The notes below the pieces were generated by a model. The model was given only the letters and a program-made list of their open reading frames with translations, did no database searches and was not told the origin of the DNA. A DNA stretch of 50,761 nucleotides, taken from sequence record OR896829.1, one strand, 5' to 3'. Source of the DNA: Escherichia phage MatMar. Numbering within the stretch: position 1 is the first letter of the stretch; each line of letters opens with the position of its first letter. Positions 1,638-44,892 of this stretch are shown piece by piece. Made by a program: the position numbers and the translations under genes.

Positions 1638-2921
1638 ATGAGTGAGAAAAATAAAACCATAAAGTACGACGGGTACAACGATATTTTCAAGCGAAGCCAA
1701 AACCAACGAGTCGATCAGCCATTTTACATGCAAGGACTGGAACAGCGAACGCTTGCCGACTTTTACGCCGTTGATGGCATGGCAAAAAGAATCATCGACG
1801 TTGTGCCGGAAGAGATGGTGACGCCTGGGTTTAATATTGATGGCATAGAAGATGAGGCCGCTTTCCGCTCTATTTGGGATGAGAAGCGCCTTAATGCAAA
1901 AATCATTGATGCCCTGTGCTGGTCGCGATTGTTCGGTGGCGCTGCAATTGTGGCAATAGTCAACGACGGGAGAGCGTTAAAGTCAGCCGTCCGCGAAGGC
2001 GCAATGCTTGAGGACATCCGCGTATATGACCGCTTCCAGATCCGAGTAGAAAAACGTGAAACAAATCCCCGAAACGTCCGCTACGGTGAGCCAGTGCTTT
2101 ACACCATCCAACCTGGCGATGATATGCCGGAATATCAAGTACACTACACACGAATTTGTGTTATCGACGGTGAACGTATTCCTAACGCGCAGAGACGACG
2201 TAACGATGGATGGGGCGAGTCAATTCTCAATAAGCGGCTGATTGAGGCCATCGTTGATTACAACTATTGTGAAGAACTGGCGACACAGCTACTACGCCGC
2301 AAACAACAGGCGGTATGGAAAGCACGCGGACTGGCTGACCTGTGCGACGACAACGAAGGTGAACAGGCGGCACGCTTGCGACTAGCGCAGGTTGACGATG
2401 AAAGCGGTGTAGGCCGTGCAATCGGGATTGACGCGGAAGATGAAGAATACGACGTTCTTAATTCTGACATTTCAGGCGTGGATGCCTTCCTGGAGAAGAA
2501 ACTTGATCGTATTGTTTCCCTGTCAGGTATCCATGAAATCATTCTGAAAAATAAAAACGTCGGCGGCGTGAGCGCCAGTCAAAACACCGCGCTTGAAACG
2601 TTCTACAAACTGATCGAACGAAAACGCATTGAGGACTACAAGCCAATCCTGGAATTTCTCCTGCCGTTCCTGATCACTGAAAACGAGTGGAGCATCGACT
2701 TTGCGCCGTTGAGCGTGCCGAGCGATAAGGACGAGGCTGAAATCCTTAACAAAAATATTACTTCTCTGAAAGCAGCTATCGAAGGCCAATTTATTGACGC
2801 AGACGAAGCACGCGACACATTGCGAGCTATCGCGCCGAAAGTTAAACTGAAAGACACCAACAACATCAAATTGCCGGAGCCGGAGCCAGTGGAGCCGGAG
2901 CCAGGCACTGAGGGAGAATAA
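1638..2921 (+). CDS. portal protein (putative)
   Basis: 427 aa ORF immediately after terL and before MuF-like gene; AGGAGA RBS; synteny. Confidence 0.6.
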   Translation: MSEKNKTIKYDGYNDIFKRSQNQRVDQPFYMQGLEQRTLADFYAVDGMAKRIIDVVPEEMVTPGFNIDGIEDEAAFRSIWDEKRLNAKIIDALCWSRLFGGAAIVAIVNDGRALKSAVREGAMLEDIRVYDRFQIRVEKRETNPRNVRYGEPVLYTIQPGDDMPEYQVHYTRICVIDGERIPNAQRRRNDGWGESILNKRLIEAIVDYNYCEELATQLLRRKQQAVWKARGLADLCDDNEGEQAARLRLAQVDDESGVGRAIGIDAEDEEYDVLNSDISGVDAFLEKKLDRIVSLSGIHEIILKNKNVGGVSASQNTALETFYKLIERKRIEDYKPILEFLLPFLITENEWSIDFAPLSVPSDKDEAEILNKNITSLKAAIEGQFIDADEARDTLRAIAPKVKLKDTNNIKLPEPEPVEPEPGTEGE

Positions 2922-2923
2922 TC

Positions 2924-3670
2924 ATGAAACGCGCCGTTAAACAATGGCGCTTTCCTGAAGCCAGCGAGCGGCAATTAAGCCGCTCAATTCAGGAGGCGAT
3001 CCGAGATCTGGTTGTGCTGATGCGCAGCCGGACAAAGGCAATGAAATTTGACGCAAGCGACGCAGAGATTAACGCGGCAGAGGATGAGATCAACAATCTG
3101 TCTACCGACTTAATCAGCGCCATCGTTTCAAGTCTTCCGGCTATCGCACTGGCGATCTACAAATTCAATGCGCAGCAGTTTATTAACATCGCGCGCGCTA
3201 CTGGCGGCAAAGATAACGTATCTGTCATTGTTCTGATCGCGGTCGGCGCTAACGCACAAGAGGAATGGTATAGGACGTTATACGGTCAATGGATCGGACT
3301 TACTGAATCATCCCTGAGAAAGCTGTTTACTAACATCGTTTCTGACTGGTCAACAAATATACGCAGCGCCAACTTTCGAGGAAGCAGTGACAAACAGGTT
3401 AATGAACTGGCTGAGAAACGATTCGCCGTCTATAGTTCATGGGGAAAGACCAGGGCGGAAAATATGGTTGGCGCATGGAACAGTCGTCTAATGCGCCAGC
3501 GCCTTTATGATGCCGGAGTGTCTGCCTATTACTGGCACGGGATGTTAGACGAGCGCGAGCGATTGAAACACGTCCAGTTGGAAGGTAAACTGATTCGGCT
3601 GAGTGAAAACCATGTTTTCCCTGGCGAGGAATTTGGTTGTCGTTGTTGGGCTATTCCAAAATGGGATTAA
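2924..3670 (+). CDS. head morphogenesis protein, Mu F / SPP1 gp7-like
   Basis: 248 aa; C-terminal signature ...HVFPGEEFGCRCWAIP typical of MuF-like minor head proteins; position after portal. Confidence 0.75.
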   Translation: MKRAVKQWRFPEASERQLSRSIQEAIRDLVVLMRSRTKAMKFDASDAEINAAEDEINNLSTDLISAIVSSLPAIALAIYKFNAQQFINIARATGGKDNVSVIVLIAVGANAQEEWYRTLYGQWIGLTESSLRKLFTNIVSDWSTNIRSANFRGSSDKQVNELAEKRFAVYSSWGKTRAENMVGAWNSRLMRQRLYDAGVSAYYWHGMLDERERLKHVQLEGKLIRLSENHVFPGEEFGCRCWAIPKWD

Positions 3671-6205: not shown

Positions 6206-6235
6206 AGGCTGTTACTTGTTAACAGCCTTTTTTAT
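6206..6235 (+). terminator. terminator-like hairpin upstream of capsid gene
   Basis: ggctgtta cttgt taacagcc followed by ttttttat. Confidence 0.5.
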
Positions 6236-6247
6236 AGGAGAAAAATC

Positions 6248-7222
6248 ATGACAAAGAAAAAATATGATGAGCTAGACGCTTCCATTGTGTCTAATCACCT
6301 GCAATTGCAAGGTATCAAGGGTGACGCTTCCGACATGGGTATTTGGACTGCGCAGGAGTTACACAAAATCCGATCCACTGCTTACGAAAAAGAGTACCCA
6401 GCGGGTTCTGCGCTTCGCGTCTTCCCTGTCACCAATGAACTGAGCGACACCGACAAAACTTTCGAGTATCAGACTTTTGATAAAGTTGGTTACGCGAAAA
6501 TTATTGCAGACTACACCGACGACCTGCCGACCGTTGACGCTCTTATGACTTCTGAGTTTGGCAAAGTGTTCCGCATGGGTAACGCTTTCCTGATCTCAAT
6601 TGACGAAATCAAAGCAGGTCAGCGAACTGGCAAAAGCCTTTCTACTCGCAAGGCTAACGCAGCGCAGAATGCACATGATCAGCTTATTAACTTCCTGGTT
6701 TTCAAAGGTTCCAAGCCTCATAAGATCGTTTCCGTTTTCGATCATCCAAACCTGACTAAAATCACGTCAAAAGGATGGCTGAGTAACGACGGAAACACCA
6801 AGTTTCCAGAAGTTGCAAGCGATGAACTGGAGACTGCAATCGAAACGATCGAGGAAGTAACCAAAGGTCAGCATCGCGCGACCAACATCCTGATTCCGCC
6901 GTCTATGCGTAAAGTCCTTACGGTTCGAATGGAAAATACCACTGAAAGCTATTTGGAATACTTCCAGAAGCAAAACGACGGTATCACCATCGACTCCATT
7001 GCAGAGCTTGAGGATATTGACGGCAAAGGCACTAAAGGCTGCCTGGTTTACGAAAAAGATCCAATGAACATGAGTATTGAGATCCCGGAGGCATTCAATA
7101 TGCTGCCTGCACAGCCGAAAGATCTGCATTTTAAAGTTCCTTGTACTTCAAAGTGCACTGGCCTTACAATTTACCGTCCGTTTACGATGGTTCTAATTAC
7201 TGGCTTGAAAAAGGCTGTGTAA
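6248..7222 (+). CDS. major capsid protein (putative)
   Basis: 324 aa from ATG 6248 with AGGAG RBS; lambda gpE-like position after decoration-like genes; flanked by terminators. Confidence 0.6.
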   Translation: MTKKKYDELDASIVSNHLQLQGIKGDASDMGIWTAQELHKIRSTAYEKEYPAGSALRVFPVTNELSDTDKTFEYQTFDKVGYAKIIADYTDDLPTVDALMTSEFGKVFRMGNAFLISIDEIKAGQRTGKSLSTRKANAAQNAHDQLINFLVFKGSKPHKIVSVFDHPNLTKITSKGWLSNDGNTKFPEVASDELETAIETIEEVTKGQHRATNILIPPSMRKVLTVRMENTTESYLEYFQKQNDGITIDSIAELEDIDGKGTKGCLVYEKDPMNMSIEIPEAFNMLPAQPKDLHFKVPCTSKCTGLTIYRPFTMVLITGLKKAV

Positions 7223-7590: not shown

Positions 7591-8010
7591 ATGGTAGATG
7601 AATTTTACACAGACGCTGAAATCATGCAGCAAATCGTGAAGTTAGCGCCGCCAATGCAACAAGTTGATCCCGATTTAATTGTGGCATGGATTGAGCTTGC
7701 TAAAGAGTTTGTTTGCAAAAAGCGGTTTAAAAACTCATACCCTAAAGCGGTTGCGCTTTACACCTTGCACCTTATGACGTTGGACGGAGCTATGAAACAG
7801 GAAGGTGAGAGCGTGGAGAGTTACTCACGCCGTATTGCGTCGTTTTCCCTGACTGGAGAATTTAGTCAGACGTTTGACCGCGTGACCAATGACGCAAGCG
7901 GAAAGATGATCCGCCAGACACCGTGGGGAAAAATGTACGAGGCGCTAAACCGTAAGCATGGTGGCGGATTTGGCCTGGTAACTGGATTGCGCCGGAGGTG
8001 TTGCCGATGA
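7591..8010 (+). CDS. putative head-tail connector protein
   Basis: 139 aa from ATG 7591 with GGAG RBS; synteny between capsid and tail genes. Confidence 0.4.
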
Positions 8011-8378
8011 ACTACAATGAGATCGCACGATTGGCTACGGCTGGAATTAACTTTTTCAGCGATGGCGCTGGTGAGTTTAAGTGTATCACGCAACAGGGTA
8101 GCGTAGATATTGTGGGAGGCGAGGAGGTAGAGAAGCCGGAAGTAAGCGTAATGATTAAAGGTCTGATCCGGTCGCCTCGAACGCGTGAGGTGGACGGCGA
8201 AACAATCCGCGTAACCGACAAGCTGGGAGTTTTCACTAATTCCGTAGAAATTAAGAACGGGTATCACATTGATGTTGATGGTGAGCGTTATATAGTAGTT
8301 GAAGCGCGACCAGTCAGACAGACAAACATCACGGTCGCCTACAGGCCAATACTTAGGAGGGTTGCGGTACATGGCTAA
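8007..8378 (+). CDS. putative head closure / head-tail adaptor protein
   Basis: ATGA overlap with upstream gene; synteny. Confidence 0.35.
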
Positions 8379-8811
8379 CTACAAGATCAAGGAATTTCAC
8401 GGCGACATTGACCGCTGGATTAACGCCGTAAATGATGGTCTTGAGGATTGCATAGAATTGTTCGCCGTTAAGGTACACACAGATCTGGTAAGACGCTCGC
8501 CAGTTGATACGGGGCGCTATCGGGGAAACTGGCAGGTGACAGCAAATTCCCCGCCACTGTACGCACTGAATCAATATGATAAGCACGGAGATAAGACTAT
8601 TGCGGAAGGCAAGCGGGCAATCTTTGCCATCATGCGTGGCGGCGGCGCGGTAAGGTCGATTTATTTTTCCAATATGTTGATTTATGCTAACGCCCTAGAG
8701 TACGGGCATTCAAAGCAAGCGCCAGCGGGTGTGCTGGGAATTGTTGCAGCGAAGTTAAGAACGTATATAGCAGAAGCAATCAAAGAGTCGAGGAAAAAAA
8801 ATGGACTATGA
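8371..8811 (+). CDS. putative neck / tail completion protein
   Basis: 146 aa from ATG 8371 with GGAGGG RBS; synteny. Confidence 0.35.
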   Translation: MANYKIKEFHGDIDRWINAVNDGLEDCIELFAVKVHTDLVRRSPVDTGRYRGNWQVTANSPPLYALNQYDKHGDKTIAEGKRAIFAIMRGGGAVRSIYFSNMLIYANALEYGHSKQAPAGVLGIVAAKLRTYIAEAIKESRKKNGL

Positions 8812-9199
8812 ATTGATGTTGGCAGCGCGCAAGGCGCTTGCTGGTGAATTTGAAAGCAGATTTAAAATCGCTTATGAAAACGTCGAGTTTGTACCGCCTG
8901 CCGATGGTTCTATGTGGTTGCGGTTCGATTATACAGAAGTTGACAAGGAGTTTTTCTCAATTGACCGTAGATGTGTTTCTTATATTGGGATGGTTCAGAT
9001 TGGCGTTATTATTCCTCCAGGCGCTGGATCTGACAAAGGTAGAAAACTTGCTAAAGAGATTGCCAGTTTTTTCTATGATGGTAAAATCTTAGAAACTGGC
9101 TATATTAGCGAAGGGGCGAAAGTCCATAAGCTACAAAAAAGTGAAACTGGTTGGTTGATTCCGATCAGGTTCTATGTTCGAATTGAAACAAAGGAGTAA
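8801..9199 (+). CDS. putative tail terminator protein
   Basis: 132 aa directly upstream of major tail protein gene (lambda gpU-like position). Confidence 0.35.
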   Translation: MDYELMLAARKALAGEFESRFKIAYENVEFVPPADGSMWLRFDYTEVDKEFFSIDRRCVSYIGMVQIGVIIPPGAGSDKGRKLAKEIASFFYDGKILETGYISEGAKVHKLQKSETGWLIPIRFYVRIETKE

Positions 9200-28362: not shown

Positions 28363-30402
28363 ATGATTCCTAATATTGAAAAGCAGATAGCCGCTTTAGG
28401 TGAAGAAACGATCCGAAAAATACAGGAGCGTTTCACGGTTGGCGATATTGTGCCATATCCTTACCAGGTTGTTGCATACACTGAGATCGCAAAGCGTATG
28501 CGAAATTATCAGCATCCATTCTTTATTAAAGCGTCAGTATCAGCAGGCAAAACATTGATGTTTGCAATGGTTGCGGCGCAATGCCGGAAAATGGGCTTGA
28601 AAATGATGGTATTGGCGCGACAGGCTGAAATTGTTGATCAGGATTCAGAGGAGATCACAAATCTCGGCGTGCCAAATTCCATTTATTGTGCCGGACTGAA
28701 AACCAAAAGCGCATACTTTCCTATTGTGGTTGGTTCTGAGGGAACTGTAGTTAACGGCCTGTTTAAGTCACTTGGCGACTATGTTCCGCACGTTATCGGG
28801 ATTGACGAGTGTCATCAGGTGGATTGGGAAGACCTTGCCGACGCGATAGAGAATGATGAATCACTCATTCAAATGACGACAAAAAAGGGCGAGAAAGTAA
28901 AGAATCCAGATTACGACATCACGAACGCCCATGAGTGTGATGAATTCCTGATTGGGGAAGATGGCTTGCCAATGGAAGGAACAGGCCGGACACAGTACAC
29001 CGTTATCATCATGGAAATGATGCGTCGTTGCAGGAAGGAATACGGTCACGAATTGCGTATATTTGGCATGACTGGATCGGAATTTCGCGGCGTGGTTCCA
29101 ATCCTGGTTGAAGATAAAAAACAGAAAGGATTTTGGCGAGAACAGGTTACTAACATAGATACCAACTATCTGATCAAATTCGGTTCGGTTGTGCCAACCA
29201 ATTTTGGCGACGTTGGCGATCTCGGTTATGACCTGTCAGAGTTCGAGGCATCCAGCGAGGACGGAGTTGCAGATTTTGACGCGAAAACGCTTCGCAAAAT
29301 GGAACAGAAGATCCATGAAGAAGCCACTATGACTAAGCGCATCATGGAGAAGGTGCACGAAATATGTAAAAACCGTAACGGCGTATTGGTGACATGTGCA
29401 GGTGAAAGACATTGTAAAGAGGCGGCGGCAGCGTTGCCTCCTGGCACGACTTACCGGATCATCACTGGCAAGACTGGCGACAATCAGCGTAAAGAATGGC
29501 TGAAAGAAGCATACGAGGGGAAAGTAAAATACATCTTCCAGGTGCAGGCGCTAACCACTGGCGTTAACGTGCCGTTTTGGGATACGTCAGTTATTCTGCG
29601 TAAGATTGGATCGCTAACTTTGTTGATTCAGCTTTTAGGTCGCGGTATGCGACTGCTTAAAAAGTGGCACAAAGAGCAGGGCTTTCATAAAGACGATCAT
29701 CTTGTTTTGGACTTTTCCGGCACGATGGACGAGTTAGGAGAGCTTTATTTCGATCCGATACTGGAGCAGGCGCAGCATCAGAAGAGATTCAAAAACGGAA
29801 AAGATCCGAAGCCTTGCCCTGTATGCAAGACGTTAAACAGCTATTACGCTCGACGTTGTATGCACGTAGACGAAAACGGAAACAGATGCGAATGGTTTTT
29901 CAAATACAAGATATGCGAGGATCGGATAGACCAGCGCACCAGAAAGGTTATCCATCACGGCTGTGGTACTAAGAATGATATTGCGGCCAGGGTGTGCAGG
30001 CATTGCGATGTGTCGCTTATTGACCCTAACGAAAAGTTAAGCGGTAAGCACTACACAAAAAACGACTGGTTCCAGGTAAAATCTTTCTCGGTTGACATGA
30101 CGAAAAATCAGAAAGGGATCATCTTCAATTATGAGCTTTCCGACGGCATCGACACATTCAGGGCGCGAGAGATATTTTTCCCTGAATCAGAAAGCCAGAT
30201 TTGCAGGGATAAATGGCGTAGAGTCGCGTTAAAGCATATACCGGATCGCCGTATTGCTGGCATGGTGGCAAGCTATCGCAATGCAAGAAAAATCATGCAA
30301 TATGCGAATCACATCATGCAGCCGTCGATGGTAACTCACCGCAAGACGAGTAAGGGCGAAGATAATCTATACAAGAAGGAGTTTAATTATGGCAATGACT
30401 GA
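28363..30402 (+). CDS. SF2 DNA helicase with C-terminal zinc ribbons
   Basis: 679 aa; Walker A SVSAGKT, DECH box (IGIDECHQ), Cys-x2-Cys pairs near C-terminus. Confidence 0.7.
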   Translation: MIPNIEKQIAALGEETIRKIQERFTVGDIVPYPYQVVAYTEIAKRMRNYQHPFFIKASVSAGKTLMFAMVAAQCRKMGLKMMVLARQAEIVDQDSEEITNLGVPNSIYCAGLKTKSAYFPIVVGSEGTVVNGLFKSLGDYVPHVIGIDECHQVDWEDLADAIENDESLIQMTTKKGEKVKNPDYDITNAHECDEFLIGEDGLPMEGTGRTQYTVIIMEMMRRCRKEYGHELRIFGMTGSEFRGVVPILVEDKKQKGFWREQVTNIDTNYLIKFGSVVPTNFGDVGDLGYDLSEFEASSEDGVADFDAKTLRKMEQKIHEEATMTKRIMEKVHEICKNRNGVLVTCAGERHCKEAAAALPPGTTYRIITGKTGDNQRKEWLKEAYEGKVKYIFQVQALTTGVNVPFWDTSVILRKIGSLTLLIQLLGRGMRLLKKWHKEQGFHKDDHLVLDFSGTMDELGELYFDPILEQAQHQKRFKNGKDPKPCPVCKTLNSYYARRCMHVDENGNRCEWFFKYKICEDRIDQRTRKVIHHGCGTKNDIAARVCRHCDVSLIDPNEKLSGKHYTKNDWFQVKSFSVDMTKNQKGIIFNYELSDGIDTFRAREIFFPESESQICRDKWRRVALKHIPDRRIAGMVASYRNARKIMQYANHIMQPSMVTHRKTSKGEDNLYKKEFNYGND

Positions 30403-30808
30403 TAAAGGTGACTATCTGGAGTTTTACGAAAGAGATCCAACAGATACACTAAAAGAAGAATCGCACCAGATAGGTGCGTTTCAATGGGTGACTTATGCTC
30501 ATCCTGAATTGCTGGCCTGGCATACGAAAAACGAAGGAGACAAGGGAATCGCCACTGCAATGATGGATCAGCAAGCCGGACTCGTTAAGGGTGTGAGTGA
30601 CTTCATCATCCTGATTGGATTAAAAGGCCGCTACCCGTTTGCGGCTATTGAAATGAAGCGCGTCAACAAGTCCGGCAAGGGGAAGGCTTCTCCGGTCAGC
30701 AAAGAGCAAAAAGCCTTCTTGCGCCGCGTGCGCGAGCTTGGCGGCTTCGCTGCCGTCACCTACGGTTACAAGCAATTCATGATCGCAGTTGATTACATGC
30801 TGAAATAG
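30389..30808 (+). CDS. VRR-NUC domain nuclease, putative
   Basis: 139 aa; GVSDFIIL ... AAIEMKR ... EQKAFL pattern of PD-(D/E)XK VRR-NUC proteins; overlaps helicase 3' end. Confidence 0.5.
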   Translation: MAMTDKGDYLEFYERDPTDTLKEESHQIGAFQWVTYAHPELLAWHTKNEGDKGIATAMMDQQAGLVKGVSDFIILIGLKGRYPFAAIEMKRVNKSGKGKASPVSKEQKAFLRRVRELGGFAAVTYGYKQFMIAVDYMLK

Positions 30809-30880: not shown

Positions 30881-31582
30881 GTGAAGAAAGAAATTGAAAT
30901 CAGCTTTGAACAAATCGAACGAGAAACGTTTGTAGGTAATGCCCTAGCGACCGGAGGCCATTACCAGGCAGTTAAGTCAAATCAATATTTCAAAGTGACG
31001 GGCAACCGATATAACGGAAGCAATACGCCGGACGTTGTGCGCGATTTATGGTCTACACCATCAGAGCTTGTCGCATGGATGGAAAGCGAATATGGTGATT
31101 ATGACATCGACGCGGCAGCAAGCAAAGATAATGCTGTATGCGAAAAATTCTACAGCAAGGAAACGAATTGCTTAAAGCGTTGGTGGGGTAGTAATAAGCA
31201 CATCTGGCTTAATCCACCATACAGCAACATCACGCCATTCGTTAAGAAAGCGATTGAGCAGATGGAGCACAACAACCAGATCGACATGCTTTTACCATGC
31301 GACACATCAACAGGATGGTTTTATGAAGCGCAACAGCACGCGGCGGAAATAATCTGGATCACTGGAGAAGTTTACAAAGAGGATGGAACAGAATATTCAC
31401 GCACCGGACGCCTGGCGTTTACTTCCGCACTTACAGGTAAACCAGTACAGGGCAACAACAAAGGAAGCGTTATTTTCATCATGCGTGAACTGAAAGAAGG
31501 CGAGCATCAGAAAACGCGATACGTTAAAATCAGCGACATTTGCCCTTCCGTGGCAGAGCGTCGGGCAAGAAAGCGGAGTTAA
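30881..31582 (+). CDS. DNA N6-adenine methyltransferase (phage Dam-like)
   Basis: 233 aa, GTG start after GAGGA RBS; catalytic NPPY motif (WLNPPYSN). Confidence 0.65.
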   Translation: MKKEIEISFEQIERETFVGNALATGGHYQAVKSNQYFKVTGNRYNGSNTPDVVRDLWSTPSELVAWMESEYGDYDIDAAASKDNAVCEKFYSKETNCLKRWWGSNKHIWLNPPYSNITPFVKKAIEQMEHNNQIDMLLPCDTSTGWFYEAQQHAAEIIWITGEVYKEDGTEYSRTGRLAFTSALTGKPVQGNNKGSVIFIMRELKEGEHQKTRYVKISDICPSVAERRARKRS

Positions 31583-32342: not shown

Positions 32343-32420
32343 ATGTGGCGCTTGTTTGTTCTACCGTTACCCGTTATCATTGCGACCGCTATCATATATA
32401 GTATCGTAATGCACCAATAG
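32343..32420 (+). CDS. possible 25-aa hydrophobic peptide
   Basis: MWRLFVLPLPVIIATAIIYSIVMHQ; GAGGA RBS at correct spacing; not in ORF track. Confidence 0.25.
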   Translation: MWRLFVLPLPVIIATAIIYSIVMHQ

Positions 32421-32431
32421 GAGAAAAAATC

Positions 32432-33550
32432 ATGAGTCAGAGCAAGATAACGGACGAGCAATTCACGCATGAGCGATTAAAGGGTAAGAGCTATCGTCAG
32501 ATTGCTGAGGAATACGGCCTTAACGTTCGTAGCGTCGAGCGCCGAGCGGCACGACTGGCAAAACAGGGTAAAATATCAACCATCGGAACTCCTGGTTTTG
32601 GTGTTCACGGTGAATCGGTCATGACCGACAAAGAAGGTAACGTGATCGTCAAATGGACAAAGACCAGTAAGGACAAAGAGCAACTGGAAGCGTTGATGCG
32701 TGCAGCTATGGACGCTTTTACCGAAGAATTGCCGCGAGTAGATCCGACACCGGAAGAAGCGAGCGAATACAGCGAAAGCCTTGCCCTTTACCCCGTTTTT
32801 GATATGCACCTGGGAGCTATGGCGCACAAACACGAATGCGGCGAGAATTGGGATACTTCCACGGCTGAGAAAGTAATGAATGACTTTTTCGATTATGCTG
32901 TGGCCTGTGCACCGTTCAGCGAGAAAGCAGTGCTACTGATTGGGGGTGACATGCTTCATAGTGACGGCCTGGAAGCAGTAACGCCTGCAAGCGGTCACGT
33001 CCTGGATCAAGATAGCCGATACGCAAAATTGGTTTACGTGGCAATCCGCGCCGTCCGTCGTGCCATTGAGTTGATGCTCAAAAAACACAAAGAAGTAGAG
33101 ATCCAGATAATTGAGGGAAACCATGACCAAAGCGGCATGATCTGGTTACGTGCAGCTATGGCGGCGGCATATGAAAAAGAGCCGCGCGTTTACGTTGATG
33201 TATCGCCGCGAGTGGTTCACCATACGCAGTACGGAAAAACCTTCCTTGCATATCATCACGGTCACACCGTCCGCAAGCCGGAAACATTGCTAATGATGTG
33301 CGCGGCAGACTGGCGGGAGGACTTCGGCAACTCAAAAACGATGTATGCGCACGTAGGGCATTTTCATCATCAGACTGTAACAGAAACATCGCTCGGCATT
33401 GTTGAAGTACATAGCACGATGGCAGCTAAAGACGCATACGCCGCGCGAGGCGGTTGGCGTTCCCGTCGCCGTGCTGCGGTTATCATTTACGACAAAGAAC
33501 ACGGCGAAATCGGACGATTTATGTTTTATCCTGAGATGGCAGAGAAATAA
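32432..33550 (+). CDS. HTH domain fused to calcineurin-like metallophosphoesterase
   Basis: 372 aa; N-terminal HTH (SYRQIAEEYGLNVRSVERRAARL); phosphoesterase motifs DMH, GDMLHSDG, GNHD, GHFHH in order. Confidence 0.5.
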   Translation: MSQSKITDEQFTHERLKGKSYRQIAEEYGLNVRSVERRAARLAKQGKISTIGTPGFGVHGESVMTDKEGNVIVKWTKTSKDKEQLEALMRAAMDAFTEELPRVDPTPEEASEYSESLALYPVFDMHLGAMAHKHECGENWDTSTAEKVMNDFFDYAVACAPFSEKAVLLIGGDMLHSDGLEAVTPASGHVLDQDSRYAKLVYVAIRAVRRAIELMLKKHKEVEIQIIEGNHDQSGMIWLRAAMAAAYEKEPRVYVDVSPRVVHHTQYGKTFLAYHHGHTVRKPETLLMMCAADWREDFGNSKTMYAHVGHFHHQTVTETSLGIVEVHSTMAAKDAYAARGGWRSRRRAAVIIYDKEHGEIGRFMFYPEMAEK

Positions 33551-33721
33551 ATGAAAGTACGTTGCACCAGAAACACATCTAAGCAATTGCCTTATACCGT
33601 CGGCCTGATTTACACGGCTGTAGCAATTCCTGGCGGCATGTATGAGATCCGCGACGGGCAAGGCAGTGCAATAATCGCACCATTACACGGCTATTACCTG
33701 ACTTTTTCACCAGCAGAATAA
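33551..33721 (+). CDS. hypothetical small protein (56 aa)
   Basis: ATG immediately after upstream stop; not in ORF track. Confidence 0.3.
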   Translation: MKVRCTRNTSKQLPYTVGLIYTAVAIPGGMYEIRDGQGSAIIAPLHGYYLTFSPAE

Positions 33722-33742: not shown

Positions 33743-33780
33743 AAGGAGGCTTAATTTACAAGCCTCCTTTTTTTATTTAT
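33743..33780 (+). terminator. strong rho-independent terminator-like hairpin
   Basis: aaggaggcttaatttacaagcctcctt followed by tttttttatttatttttt. Confidence 0.6.
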
Positions 33781-33844
33781 TTTTTCAGCACAATGTTTAA
33801 AATGCAATCATCACTATTGACATTTGAATAAAGAGGATCTAAAA

Positions 33845-34060
33845 ATGAAAGATTTTTTGAACGCTGCAACGTCAGGCACGGGTGGTGCATCAATCACGGG
33901 AGCAGTAACAGGACAAACTGCAATTGCAATTGCCAGCTTCGTATTGATGGCTATTTTCGGCGTGTGGGGCGCTTATCTGCGGTGGCGTGATAGTAAAGCC
34001 TTCCAGAAGGCGCTTGATAGTGGTGACTTTAAAAAAGCAATTGAAATTAGGGGTAAATAA
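33845..34060 (+). CDS. holin (small single-TMD, pinholin-like)
   Basis: 71 aa from ATG 33845 with AAGAGGA RBS; one hydrophobic segment then charged C-terminus; directly upstream of endolysin. Confidence 0.5.
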
Positions 34061-38043: not shown

Positions 38044-38089
38044 ATTATGCCCGACTCAAGGTCGGGCGTTTTAACAAAAAGTGCTATTT
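38044..38089 (-). promoter_or_regulatory. AAATAGCAC module, hairpin spacer, CATAAT at N22
   Basis: - strand: aaatagcactttttgttaaaac gcccgaccttgagtcggg cataat. Confidence 0.5.
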
Positions 38090-38794
38090 TGAGTTTTCCT
38101 CAAATACGGCGCGAGCAAATCCTCGCGGAGTGAGGGAGCGTATCATCTTTGTTCTGGATGATTTGCCACCAGTTTTAGCCCAGCCTGGGTTATCCTTCTC
38201 GGTTGGCAATACCAGTTTTCTCTGTGGAACGATAAAGCCGTTTCCAGTCCAAAGGCATGTTTTCTTAAAGTAGCAATCACGCGCCGGAATAATATCAGGG
38301 AAGTCTGGATGCTTATCATCTTCCGGCAGATAGCCAGCGTAATCGCACGGATGGAACGTATAATCAGGCTTTCGCCATAACGTTGACAACTTGCCAACCG
38401 GATTTTCGATCATGTAAGGAACACCGAAATAATCAGCTATATCAGCCGCGATTCTGCAAGTGTCGGCGGCCTCATCCTGGAACGATGGATTCTCAAGGCG
38501 TTTTTTAGCCCAATGGCGAGATCCGCTATTTGCAAGGTCAGTGCATGGTGGGAAGGCCATAATAAAATCAGGATTGCCCCACTCATTATTTATTGCCTTA
38601 ACATAAAAAGCATCGTCAATCCAGACGTTAACGTATTCGATATTCTCATGCTTTATGCGCACTGACTGGTAATCACCGTGATCGCCACCGTCAGCATTAA
38701 AGCAAATGCACTTATAGCCATTATCAGCCCAATCTTTAACGGCTTTACCAGATCCATCAAATAGGGAGAATATTAAACCTTTATACATCGTCAT
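38084..38794 (-). CDS. DNA cytosine-5 methyltransferase-like protein (short)
   Basis: about 236 aa from ATG near 38794; motif order FDGSG (AdoMet box), PPC (catalytic Pro-Cys), ENPVG (ENV box); ORF track start 38857 is TTG. Confidence 0.4.
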   Translation of the reverse strand: MTMYKGLIFSLFDGSGKAVKDWADNGYKCICFNADGGDHGDYQSVRIKHENIEYVNVWIDDAFYVKAINNEWGNPDFIMAFPPCTDLANSGSRHWAKKRLENPSFQDEAADTCRIAADIADYFGVPYMIENPVGKLSTLWRKPDYTFHPCDYAGYLPEDDKHPDFPDIIPARDCYFKKTCLWTGNGFIVPQRKLVLPTEKDNPGWAKTGGKSSRTKMIRSLTPRGFARAVFEENSK

Positions 38795-38798
38795 TACC

Positions 38799-39023
38799 TC
38801 AAAACGGAAAACAGCGCGCACAACCAGGATCGAAATCGCATCCACAATCATTAACAATCATAGTGGGATCTGCAAATATTGCGCTTGATTCAAGATCCAT
38901 ATCCATATCACCTAAAGCCTCATCAAGAGTCTTAAATTTATATGCCACTTCAAGCGCCGCCTCTTTATTTAGTCCGGCATCTTCTGCCATTTGAAGGCGC
39001 TCAAAAAAACCGTCCTGACTCAT
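38799..39023 (-). CDS. hypothetical protein
   Basis: 74 aa acidic protein. Confidence 0.45.
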   Translation of the reverse strand: MSQDGFFERLQMAEDAGLNKEAALEVAYKFKTLDEALGDMDMDLESSAIFADPTMIVNDCGCDFDPGCARCFPF

Positions 39024-42892: not shown

Positions 42893-42960
42893 TAAGCCAG
42901 GCCGCAAAATCCGGCCTATAACCAGAAATAATTTTGTTAAACCAATCAGGAGAAAGCACC

Positions 42961-43854
42961 ATGTTAAAACTTGCTGACATTAAATTCCCGATCACCTTCG
43001 AATCTCGCGGCATTGGTCATTACATTTTTACTGATGAAAAAACATGCCATAAAGTTGATTTGCATAGCTACAAGCGTGCGCCATCAGACATGGAGATTGA
43101 ACACTTCATTGATGCACACAATACGCACTACAACGCCCTTAAAGACTATGGCTATGCAATGCCAGGATATACCAGCTTCCACTACAAGCCATATAAAGGC
43201 CAGGTGTTGCCAGTGCGCTCACCGGAACGCGCAGAGATTCCGATGGTCGATATGAAAACATGCGACTACAAAAAGCTGTGGTGCTTAAGTGTGGACAATA
43301 TCAAGTACCCGATCACGTTCTACACGGTTGGTAATTCAACGATTCGCTTCACATCGCGCGACAATGGCGTTTATAGCGATGGTCAGAAATCAGAGTTGAA
43401 AGTTGATTTCTTTGTTGATGGTCACAATAGATACAATCCACACAACGAAAAAGATAAGGTGTACTACGTGGAAGATATTACAAAACACTTATTTGGAGAA
43501 ACACCATTCGGCGGCGGGAAGACGTCAATTCATCAAATCATTGGCGAGGAGATCCACAAAGCGGCTGCCGAAATGAAAGCGCCTGGAGGATGGCGTATTG
43601 ACAAGAGCGCCTTTGCCTATCAAGAAATCGTAACGCAGGGCGCAATTGAAGATATGCCAGTTGCAGCCACGCTAAAAGGAGTCCGGCTTGATGATGGTAC
43701 ATGGTATGAATTAACGGCTACACCAAAGACGATCGAAATTCATGATGATGTTGTTATCCTCCTGCTTCACTATGGCGGCGCTAAAAACCGGACGGTTGCA
43801 GGTGAGATCAGCATCAAGCGCGGAACGATGGTTAAGTGGAAGGTGAAAGTATAA
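42961..43854 (+). CDS. hypothetical protein with internal two-fold repeat
   Basis: 297 aa from ATG 42961 with AGGAGA RBS; repeated motif KFPITFESRG / KYPITFYTVG. Confidence 0.45.
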   Translation: MLKLADIKFPITFESRGIGHYIFTDEKTCHKVDLHSYKRAPSDMEIEHFIDAHNTHYNALKDYGYAMPGYTSFHYKPYKGQVLPVRSPERAEIPMVDMKTCDYKKLWCLSVDNIKYPITFYTVGNSTIRFTSRDNGVYSDGQKSELKVDFFVDGHNRYNPHNEKDKVYYVEDITKHLFGETPFGGGKTSIHQIIGEEIHKAAAEMKAPGGWRIDKSAFAYQEIVTQGAIEDMPVAATLKGVRLDDGTWYELTATPKTIEIHDDVVILLLHYGGAKNRTVAGEISIKRGTMVKWKVKV

Positions 43855-44352: not shown

Positions 44353-44892
44353 ATGAAAAAATACACTTTCGAACTATGGGGCAAGAAATACGAATTAATG
44401 ACCAGCAAGCCTATTGTTATCGTTGATCTGGATGGCACGCTATCGGACGGATCGCATCGTTTGCACTTGCTGCCAACCGAAAACTTGCACCTTACGGAAT
44501 CGTGGAGCGAATTTAACAGGGCAGCCGCCGGAGATTCACCGATTAAGAGCACGATTGCTGTTATCAATGGTTTGTGGGTATCTGGCTTTGCCGTCGTTAT
44601 TCTTACCGGACGCAGCGACGAGGTTCGCTATGAAACCTGCAAATGGTTGAATGAGAACGGCGTGAAGTTTGACGAAATCATCATGCGCCGCCAGGAGGAC
44701 AACCGAAAGGATACGGTTATTAAAGAAGAAGCCTTGCGCGCTATTGGATTGGGCAACATTGTTTGCGCCTTTGACGATTCTCCGAATGTGGTTAAGCACT
44801 TCCGAAGCCTGGGGATCACAACCTATCAGGTCACGGAATACGACAAGCCACACGCTCACCTGCAATCTCACGGCGTGGAGTGTTTAAAATGA
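44353..44892 (+). CDS. HAD-family phosphatase (polynucleotide 3'-phosphatase-like)
   Basis: 179 aa; HAD motif I VDLDGTLSDG near N-terminus. Confidence 0.5.
   Translation: MKKYTFELWGKKYELMTSKPIVIVDLDGTLSDGSHRLHLLPTENLHLTESWSEFNRAAAGDSPIKSTIAVINGLWVSGFAVVILTGRSDEVRYETCKWLNENGVKFDEIIMRRQEDNRKDTVIKEEALRAIGLGNIVCAFDDSPNVVKHFRSLGITTYQVTEYDKPHAHLQSHGVECLK

Follow-up and report, generated by a model that had tools for sequence, protein, structure and literature searches.

What does a small siphovirus do with a phosphoesterase that carries its own DNA-binding domain? The question is raised by a gene of Escherichia phage MatMar (sequence record OR896829.1), whose 50,761-nt sequence was analysed at full length and is referred to here as the window. 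At positions 32432..33550 it encodes a 372-residue protein in which a helix-turn-helix (HTH) domain precedes a metallophosphoesterase (MPE) core of the calcineurin-like superfamily. Here we report that this HTH-MPE gene is an ordinary member of a catalogued phage family of HTH-fused, nuclease-like MPEs; it is not categorically new, the family lying inside a well-known enzyme superfamily. Its product probably acts on DNA as a nuclease. More tentatively, we favour the narrower reading that it is an HTH-tethered two-metal nuclease of phage replication or recombination, on the branch of the superfamily that includes Mre11/SbcD and the DP1 subunit of PolD.

The two domains and the active site

The gene and the parts of its product (amino acids, aa) are arranged as follows.

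32419..32423, + strand: Shine-Dalgarno-like AGGAG, 8 nt 5' of the HTH-MPE ATG, read from the sequence
32432..33550, + strand: HTH-MPE gene, 372 aa, ATG start and TAA stop; orthologue of T1 ST16/gp16, PHROG 704
32453..32563, + strand: N-terminal three-helix HTH, aa 8-44, of sigma-70 region 4 / LuxR-GerE type (Pfam, family profile against GerE, AlphaFold helices)
32564..32596, + strand: flexible linker, aa 45-55 (AlphaFold predicted local distance difference test, pLDDT, below 50 at aa 51-56)
32597..32722, + strand: family-specific beta-hairpin (aa 56-80) and helix (aa 82-97) preceding the catalytic core (alignment, AlphaFold)
32771..33526, + strand: MPE core, aa 114-365 (invariant columns, motif positions, fold matches)
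Motifs within the core: I, DxH, aa 124-126; II, GD, aa 172-173, then H176; III, GNHD, aa 229-232; IV, H276; V, GHxH, aa 309-312

The original prediction, made from the letters of the sequence, treated the open reading frame as a gene, and rightly so: besides its ATG start and the AGGAG ahead of it, a protein of phage BabyEgg annotated as "DNA repair exonuclease" is 100% identical. The prediction had also read an N-terminal HTH and a full set of MPE motifs in the product, and both are confirmed. All five ordered metal-binding motifs of the superfamily (DxH, GD, GNH[DE], H and GHxH) are present, in the strings DMH (aa 124-126), GGDMLHSDG (171-179), GNHD (229-232), HHGH (275-278) and GHFHH (309-313), while the string first proposed as the HTH occupies aa 20-46. 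When the protein was aligned with 55 homologues of 32-84% identity, D124, H126, G128, D173, T184, N230, H231, H276, G309, H310 and H312 were invariant across the 56 sequences. By their place in the motifs, these residues are the superfamily's metal ligands and its transition-state histidine, and because the ligands are invariant across homologues the motif strings are not a matter of chance. The predicted binuclear metal site is complete (D124, H126, D173, N230, H276, H310 and H312), with H231 as the transition-state residue. The core also contains a family-specific insert (aa 176-197), in which T184, D192, D194 and R196 are conserved. Outside the core, G69 and W75 of the beta-hairpin are nearly invariant, and the putative recognition helix of the HTH (aa 32-44) is rich in Arg and Lys by charge count.

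A Pfam search, suggested as a check on both domains, recovered them in relatives and fell short for the MatMar protein itself. Sigma70_r4_2 matches 17 of the 56 relatives (best E 1.5e-9) and is sub-threshold here (aa 11-41, E 7e-5, 22.8 versus 25.7 bits); the MPE models match 11-12 of the 56 at E <= 0.01, and Metallophos scores 13.2 bits on the MatMar protein against a cut-off of 21.5 (E 0.12). Further relatives match HTH_23, HTH_28, GerE, HTH_8 and similar Pfam models, and the family profile matches GerE (PDB 1fse, E 0.0025) as well as LuxR-type and sigma-factor region 4 domains. Searched directly against the PDB, the sequence gave a single spurious nanobody match, and no NCBIfam model came close to its cut-off.

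Structure prediction, also proposed at the outset, gave a clearer picture. The AlphaFold2 model, built on the 56-sequence alignment, is confident (mean pLDDT 91.9, predicted template modelling score 0.76), with the three HTH helices at aa 8-16, 21-28 and 32-44 modelled at high confidence and the MPE core as a four-layer alpha/beta sandwich, the fold of the superfamily. Foldseek comparison with the PDB placed Mre11 and PolD DP1 on top (E about 7e-7), followed by YfcE-like proteins, Vps29, GpdQ and Rv0805, with 13-19% identity to the nearest solved structures. The ranking therefore points to nucleic-acid nucleases as the nearest solved relatives of the modelled core, by a modest margin over other MPEs. 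Among the latter, the class III cyclic-nucleotide phosphodiesterases (CpdA/Rv0805) are defined by the MPE motif set together with activity on cNMPs.

Neither of these leading neighbours is an orthologue. Identity to Mre11/SbcD, including phage versions such as T4 gp47 and the T5 D13 type, is about 13-15%; HTH-MPE has no capping domain, since only about 60 residues follow motif V in the model, and it carries an N-terminal HTH and a family-specific hairpin. Compared with DP1, the 3'-5' proofreading exonuclease of PolD, and the eukaryotic polymerase B-subunits (15% identity), it lacks the oligonucleotide/oligosaccharide-binding (OB) fold, with no more than a two-strand hairpin and one helix ahead of the modelled core. 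The partners are missing as well, for neither the annotation of a 99.7%-identical genome nor the open reading frames of the window include a Rad50/SbcC-like ATPase, DP2 or a DNA polymerase gene. HTH-MPE is thus not an Mre11/SbcD orthologue, having neither capping domain nor Rad50 partner, nor a DP1 orthologue, having neither OB fold nor DP2, and we rejected a complex of the Mre11-Rad50 or PolD type because the genome holds no partner gene.

Two further comparisons were made within the superfamily. The Pseudomonas putida enzyme named Nuclease MPE in PDB 6nvo (PdeM, from a ligase-associated repair cluster) is a stand-alone bacterial MPE and a Mn-dependent endonuclease of single-stranded DNA; profile matches are weak and lie around motif III (E 0.13; TIGR04123, E 0.0066). 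With lambda NinI and the PPP phosphatases the likeness is that lambdoid phages have a gene of the MPE superfamily in their nin-like region, but the PPP signatures GDxVDRG and GNHE are absent from the HTH-MPE protein, and a PPP-type protein phosphatase analogous to NinI was rejected on motifs and fold scores.

Distribution of the family

The genome is that of a T1-like coliphage assigned to the genus Warwickvirus (Drexlerviridae, Tempevirinae); over 6 kb its DNA is 99.7% identical to that of phage WaterSpirit and 99.2% identical to that of BabyEgg. The terminase large subunit gene forms the exact start of the window, whose length is close to that of related complete genomes (50.8-51.3 kb); the sequence is probably a whole, re-oriented phage genome.

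The original prediction held that such a fusion is not one of the standard phage functions, a view that the distribution of the gene does not support. The protein matches PHROG 704 ("DNA repair exonuclease") over its full length (E 2.8e-148, aa 4-370 on positions 2-389 of the 390-position profile), and its T1 orthologue, ST16/gp16 (YP_003929.1, 377 aa), is 57% identical, HTH included. The gene is a persistent core gene of the Drexlerviridae, being found in 508 of 522 genomes (PMC13164509). A tblastn search recovered relatives in 2058 phage records, with at least 80% of the query covered in 1904; the carriers include Drexlerviridae, Jersey-like Guernseyvirinae, a T7-like Pseudomonas phage, and Vibrio, Rhizobium, N4-like Ruegeria, Campylobacter and Flavobacterium phages. 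Prophage copies occur in 35 of 5426 complete E. coli genomes, where PGAP labels the product "hypothetical protein".

With a cut-off of E <= 1e-3, an exhaustive HMMER scan of 1.84 billion cluster representatives returned 4630 matches, of which 1048 reach E <= 1e-30. A homologous N-terminal HTH is present in 122 of the best 150 representatives, and about seven of the 150 lack any N-terminal extension; the fusion is thus ancestral, an old and stable trait of the family.

Database names for the family conflict. GenBank records call its members phosphoesterase, oxidoreductase, Ser/Thr phosphatase, transcriptional regulator, or sigma70_r4_2 or wHTH domain protein, and DNA repair exonuclease, DNA polymerase II small subunit and Rrf2 regulator are also in use. 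A literature search for experiments on any member found genome descriptions only: a phage Tn-seq preprint leaves T1-like phages outside its coverage, and papers on Metis and PUA-Cal-HAD, systems that respond to m6-dAMP set free when host DNA is degraded, deal with bacterial calcineurin-like effectors, not with this gene. TLS gp66, a "proof-reading exonuclease" in the TLS re-annotation, is probably the same gene.

Contamination with T1-like phage, or mislabelling, seems to explain several other records. Twenty records labelled as Campylobacter phages (e.g. GenBank MG065641) are 82-85% DNA-identical to MatMar, "Streptococcus phage MBBL140" encodes a relative of 80% protein identity, and Nitratidesulfovibrio liaohensis NODE_2 (46.7 kb, from a Desulfovibrio-type assembly) has a homologue of 58% identity in T1-like gene order.

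Gene neighbourhood in MatMar and in other phages

In MatMar the gene lies downstream of Dam and upstream of the lysis cassette, as had been described from the sequence. The surrounding features are these.

28363..30402, + strand: superfamily 2 (SF2) helicase (ResIII and Helicase_C, Pfam), upstream of HTH-MPE
30389..30808, + strand: VRR-NUC nuclease, upstream of HTH-MPE
30881..31582, + strand: Dam (Pfam Dam, E 1.1e-61), upstream of HTH-MPE
33551..33721, + strand: DUF7244 (SH3-like) gene, 56 aa (Pfam, E 8.5e-28)
33743..33779, + strand: intrinsic-terminator-like hairpin with a 10-bp stem, AAGGAGGCTT/AAGCCTCCTT, and a T-run, ending the helicase-to-MPE-to-DUF7244 unit
33817..33846, + strand: promoter-like site TTGACA-18-AAAAAT before the holin, 10 of 12 positions, a consensus match only

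Three small open reading frames upstream of the HTH-MPE gene on the same strand have no Pfam match. Downstream, the ATG of the DUF7244 gene begins on the base after the HTH-MPE stop (TAAATG); the two are possibly co-translated, putative partners. On this layout the HTH-MPE gene closes a transcription unit of replication type and adjoins the lysis cassette by position only, given the strong terminator-like hairpin and the promoter-like site before the holin; a functional tie to lysis was rejected for the same reason. Promoter-like sites are no more frequent in the region than in shuffled sequence (14 versus 12 +/- 4.3), and a further site just 5' of HTH-MPE (32374..32402) was accordingly not regarded as meaningful. 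The SH3 gene was placed in the lysis module by position in a 2026 paper; from the transcription-unit layout, the DUF7244 gene may instead be part of the upstream operon. In T1 an HNH homing-endonuclease gene, flanked by repeated 'atagcacctttt', has been inserted between ST16 and the SH3 gene ST14 (T1 locus 7940..8900), and a hairpin with a T-run again lies 3' of ST14, ahead of the holin.

Elsewhere the MatMar genome encodes a RecE-like PD-(D/E)XK exonuclease, Erf, SSB, a primase, a DUF3987 helicase, a HAD_PNKP phosphatase and a deoxynucleoside monophosphate (dNMP) kinase. The gene at 44353..44892, whose counterparts in WaterSpirit and T1 (ST64) are annotated "polynucleotide kinase", matches only the HAD_PNKP 3'-phosphatase domain in Pfam (E 6e-21), with no kinase domain detected in its 179 aa. 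Neither a second "DNA methyltransferase" (257 aa, 38084..38857, - strand) nor a 306-aa open reading frame (42934..43854, + strand) has a Pfam match at E <= 0.001.

Other lineages place the gene in comparable company. In Pseudomonas phage MR4 (Autographiviridae) a DNA polymerase is followed at some distance by Dam, an exonuclease, an endonuclease, HTH-MPE, a phosphatase, a dNMP kinase and a ligase. Homologues of 67% identity occur in E. coli prophages and in the lambdoid phage mEp554, where the order is cI, a cro-like gene, a Lin1244_N initiator, Ant, HTH-MPE and DnaB helicase, with NinB further on. A Vibrio phage has SSB, HTH-MPE and then deoxyribosyltransferase-like and pyrophosphohydrolase-like genes; the homologue of an N4-like Ruegeria phage adjoins dCMP deaminase and ThyX; and in Campylobacter Fletchervirus a Holliday-junction resolvase and a ligase precede a distant homologue. 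In Jerseyvirus, HTH-MPE shares a small island among the tail genes with Ant and a superinfection-immunity gene.

A profile search of genome contigs added 19 prophage loci from Xanthomonadales, Burkholderiales and Caulobacterales, in which the position of HTH-MPE is either at the boundary between early and late genes or close to DNA enzymes. It stands between a Q-like antiterminator and TerS and TerL in one locus (L017), ahead of a TerS-like gene and TerL in another (L026), and 1.3 kb upstream of TerL in a third (L034); in others it lies downstream of a methyltransferase and upstream of an endolysin (L019), downstream of a primase/helicase (L021) or upstream of an ATP-dependent ligase (L022). 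The context shared across lineages is DNA replication, recombination and nucleotide metabolism, the gene often being the last function ahead of the late genes.

An Ant/Bro-N anti-repressor-like gene also neighbours HTH-MPE in lambdoid prophages of E. coli and, in a different order, in Jersey-like Salmonella phages (L002, 5224..5967; L003, 7470..8141; L009-L012, about 6224..6967).

Substrate, mechanism and competing explanations

Among the roles proposed from the sequence, that of a phosphoesterase targeted to DNA is the one that this evidence favours. In the mechanism we envisage, HTH-MPE would be expressed from the replication operon together with the SF2 helicase, VRR-NUC, Dam and the small open reading frames. 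Its sigma-70 region 4/LuxR-type HTH, on a flexible linker, would keep the enzyme on duplex DNA and so substitute for the DNA-clamping partners Rad50/SbcC and DP2, which the phage lacks, while the catalytic core would cleave DNA phosphodiester bonds to leave 5'-phosphate and 3'-OH ends. Acting with the RecE-like exonuclease, Erf and SSB of the phage, it may process the ends, forks or branches of phage DNA, serving recombination-dependent replication and the maturation of concatemers as infection passes from its early to its late phase.

The main rival, which we consider rather unlikely, is that the enzyme is a host-chromosome DNase that degrades the nucleoid early in infection and feeds 5'-dNMPs to the phage dNMP kinase. 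HTH-MPE would then be a single-chain functional analogue of the T5 proteins A1 and A2, and possibly the classical host-DNA-degradation function of T1, a phage long known for degrading the DNA of its host. The recurrence of dNMP kinase, HAD phosphatase and other nucleotide-metabolism genes as neighbours fits nucleotide salvage of this kind, and one defence system, which senses the m6-dAMP set free by phage-induced chromosome degradation, restricts the Tunavirinae phage Bas12. In T5, A1 is a predicted metallophosphatase said to resemble double-strand-break repair nucleases and polymerase proofreading subunits; it acts with the DNA-binding A2 and, according to a recent report (bioRxiv 10.64898/2026.04.02.716235), is the one factor that host DNA degradation in vivo requires and suffices for it. 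Like HTH-MPE, then, it is a phage MPE with structural neighbours among repair nucleases and proofreading subunits, and members of its family often bear an N-terminal HTH. Relatives of A1 (T5 locus 1706..3376) with 44-48% identity and about 530 aa carry HTH_23, HTH_38, HTH_7 and CENP-B_N domains in Pfam (P0343, P0345, P0346, P0373 and P0385), A1 itself having a different N-terminus where they carry the HTH; the HTH and MPE architecture therefore recurs in a second phage family. A second precedent is Gp48 of the cluster A mycobacteriophage A10ZJ24, a phage-encoded MPE active as a phosphodiesterase, which damages the genomic DNA of the host (PMC12287305), but Gp48 is a short, stand-alone, non-essential and host-specific MPE with motif I from D10 and no HTH, and it was undetected as a relative of HTH-MPE in any search made.

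Several observations weigh against a host DNase. Specific homology to A1 could not be demonstrated: hhalign gave a weak match to the HTH region (probability 27%), and overall probabilities of 12-37%, the highest in the MPE region, with E 3.6e-4 over 215 MPE columns in which motifs III-V are in register and motifs I-II are not. A1 differs also in its length (556 aa), its large extra middle region and its pre-early expression from first-step-transfer DNA, and A2 shows no similarity to the HTH of HTH-MPE. Homology being too weak to claim, A1 is treated here as an analogue of HTH-MPE and not as a homologue. The homologues of 67% identity occupy the early rightward operon of temperate lambdoid phages, beside the initiator and DnaB, a position in conflict with lysogeny if the enzyme destroyed the host chromosome, and there is no evident means by which phage DNA would be spared. 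The presence of such close homologues in a temperate early operon favours a controlled activity rather than wholesale destruction of host DNA. The broader proposal, in which HTH-MPE is the single-chain equivalent of the A1 and A2 pair and the host-chromosome nuclease of T1-like phages, within a widespread class of "HTH-guided MPE DNases" with at least two origins in phages, is likewise unlikely.

End-healing is an improbable alternative. The MPE domain of bacterial Pnkp performs end-healing, and an enzyme of this sort would clear 3'-phosphate or 2',3'-cyclic phosphate groups from ends, or act hydrolytically on small nucleotides, in concert with a ligase and with the phage HAD phosphatase and dNMP kinase. 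Genes for a "polynucleotide kinase"/HAD phosphatase and a dNMP kinase are indeed often downstream in Drexlerviridae and in phage MR4 (the latter with a ligase too), and ligase genes lie near distant or prophage homologues, but similarity to the PnkP phosphatase domain is low and a separate HAD_PNKP phosphatase is already encoded.

The original prediction also listed a transcription regulator with an enzymatic domain, a role that we regard as very improbable; the HTH would in that case recognise phage promoters, or RNA polymerase, when early expression gives way to late. The sigma-70 region 4 / LuxR-GerE class of the HTH is consistent with it, as are the early/late boundary position before the lysis cassette in Drexlerviridae, its place after a Q-like antiterminator and ahead of terminase or lysis genes in prophages of Xanthomonadales and Burkholderiales, and the name transcriptional regulator in some GenBank records. 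Every catalytic residue is invariant, however, so that selection must act on the enzyme; moreover, homologues without an HTH exist, T1-like phages have a separate regulator beside the primase, and other lineages keep the gene within DNA-metabolism clusters. The remaining listed role, a counter-defence enzyme degrading the cyclic (oligo)nucleotide signals of CBASS, Pycsar, Thoeris or type III CRISPR, deserves the least credence, as the gene is a syntenic core gene of Drexlerviridae that occurs in many phage lineages, unlike patchy accessory anti-defence genes, keeps an ancestral HTH of DNA-binding type and neighbours from DNA metabolism, is structurally closer to nuclease-type MPEs, and matched no PADLOC family at E <= 1 and is therefore not a known defence component.

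HTH-MPE is among the few large core genes that, with an intact active site, are experimentally unstudied in T1-like, Jersey-like, Kaguna-like and many other phages, and establishing its substrate would correct thousands of annotations. The substrate could explain how small siphoviruses with neither a polymerase of their own nor Mre11-Rad50 process DNA for recombination-dependent replication or, alternatively, how T1 destroys host DNA; were the host-DNase explanation true, it would identify the host-DNA-degradation function of T1. The recurrence of the HTH and MPE architecture, also among the relatives of T5 A1, suggests that the replacement of a Rad50 or DP2 partner by a simple DNA-binding domain may be a general solution.

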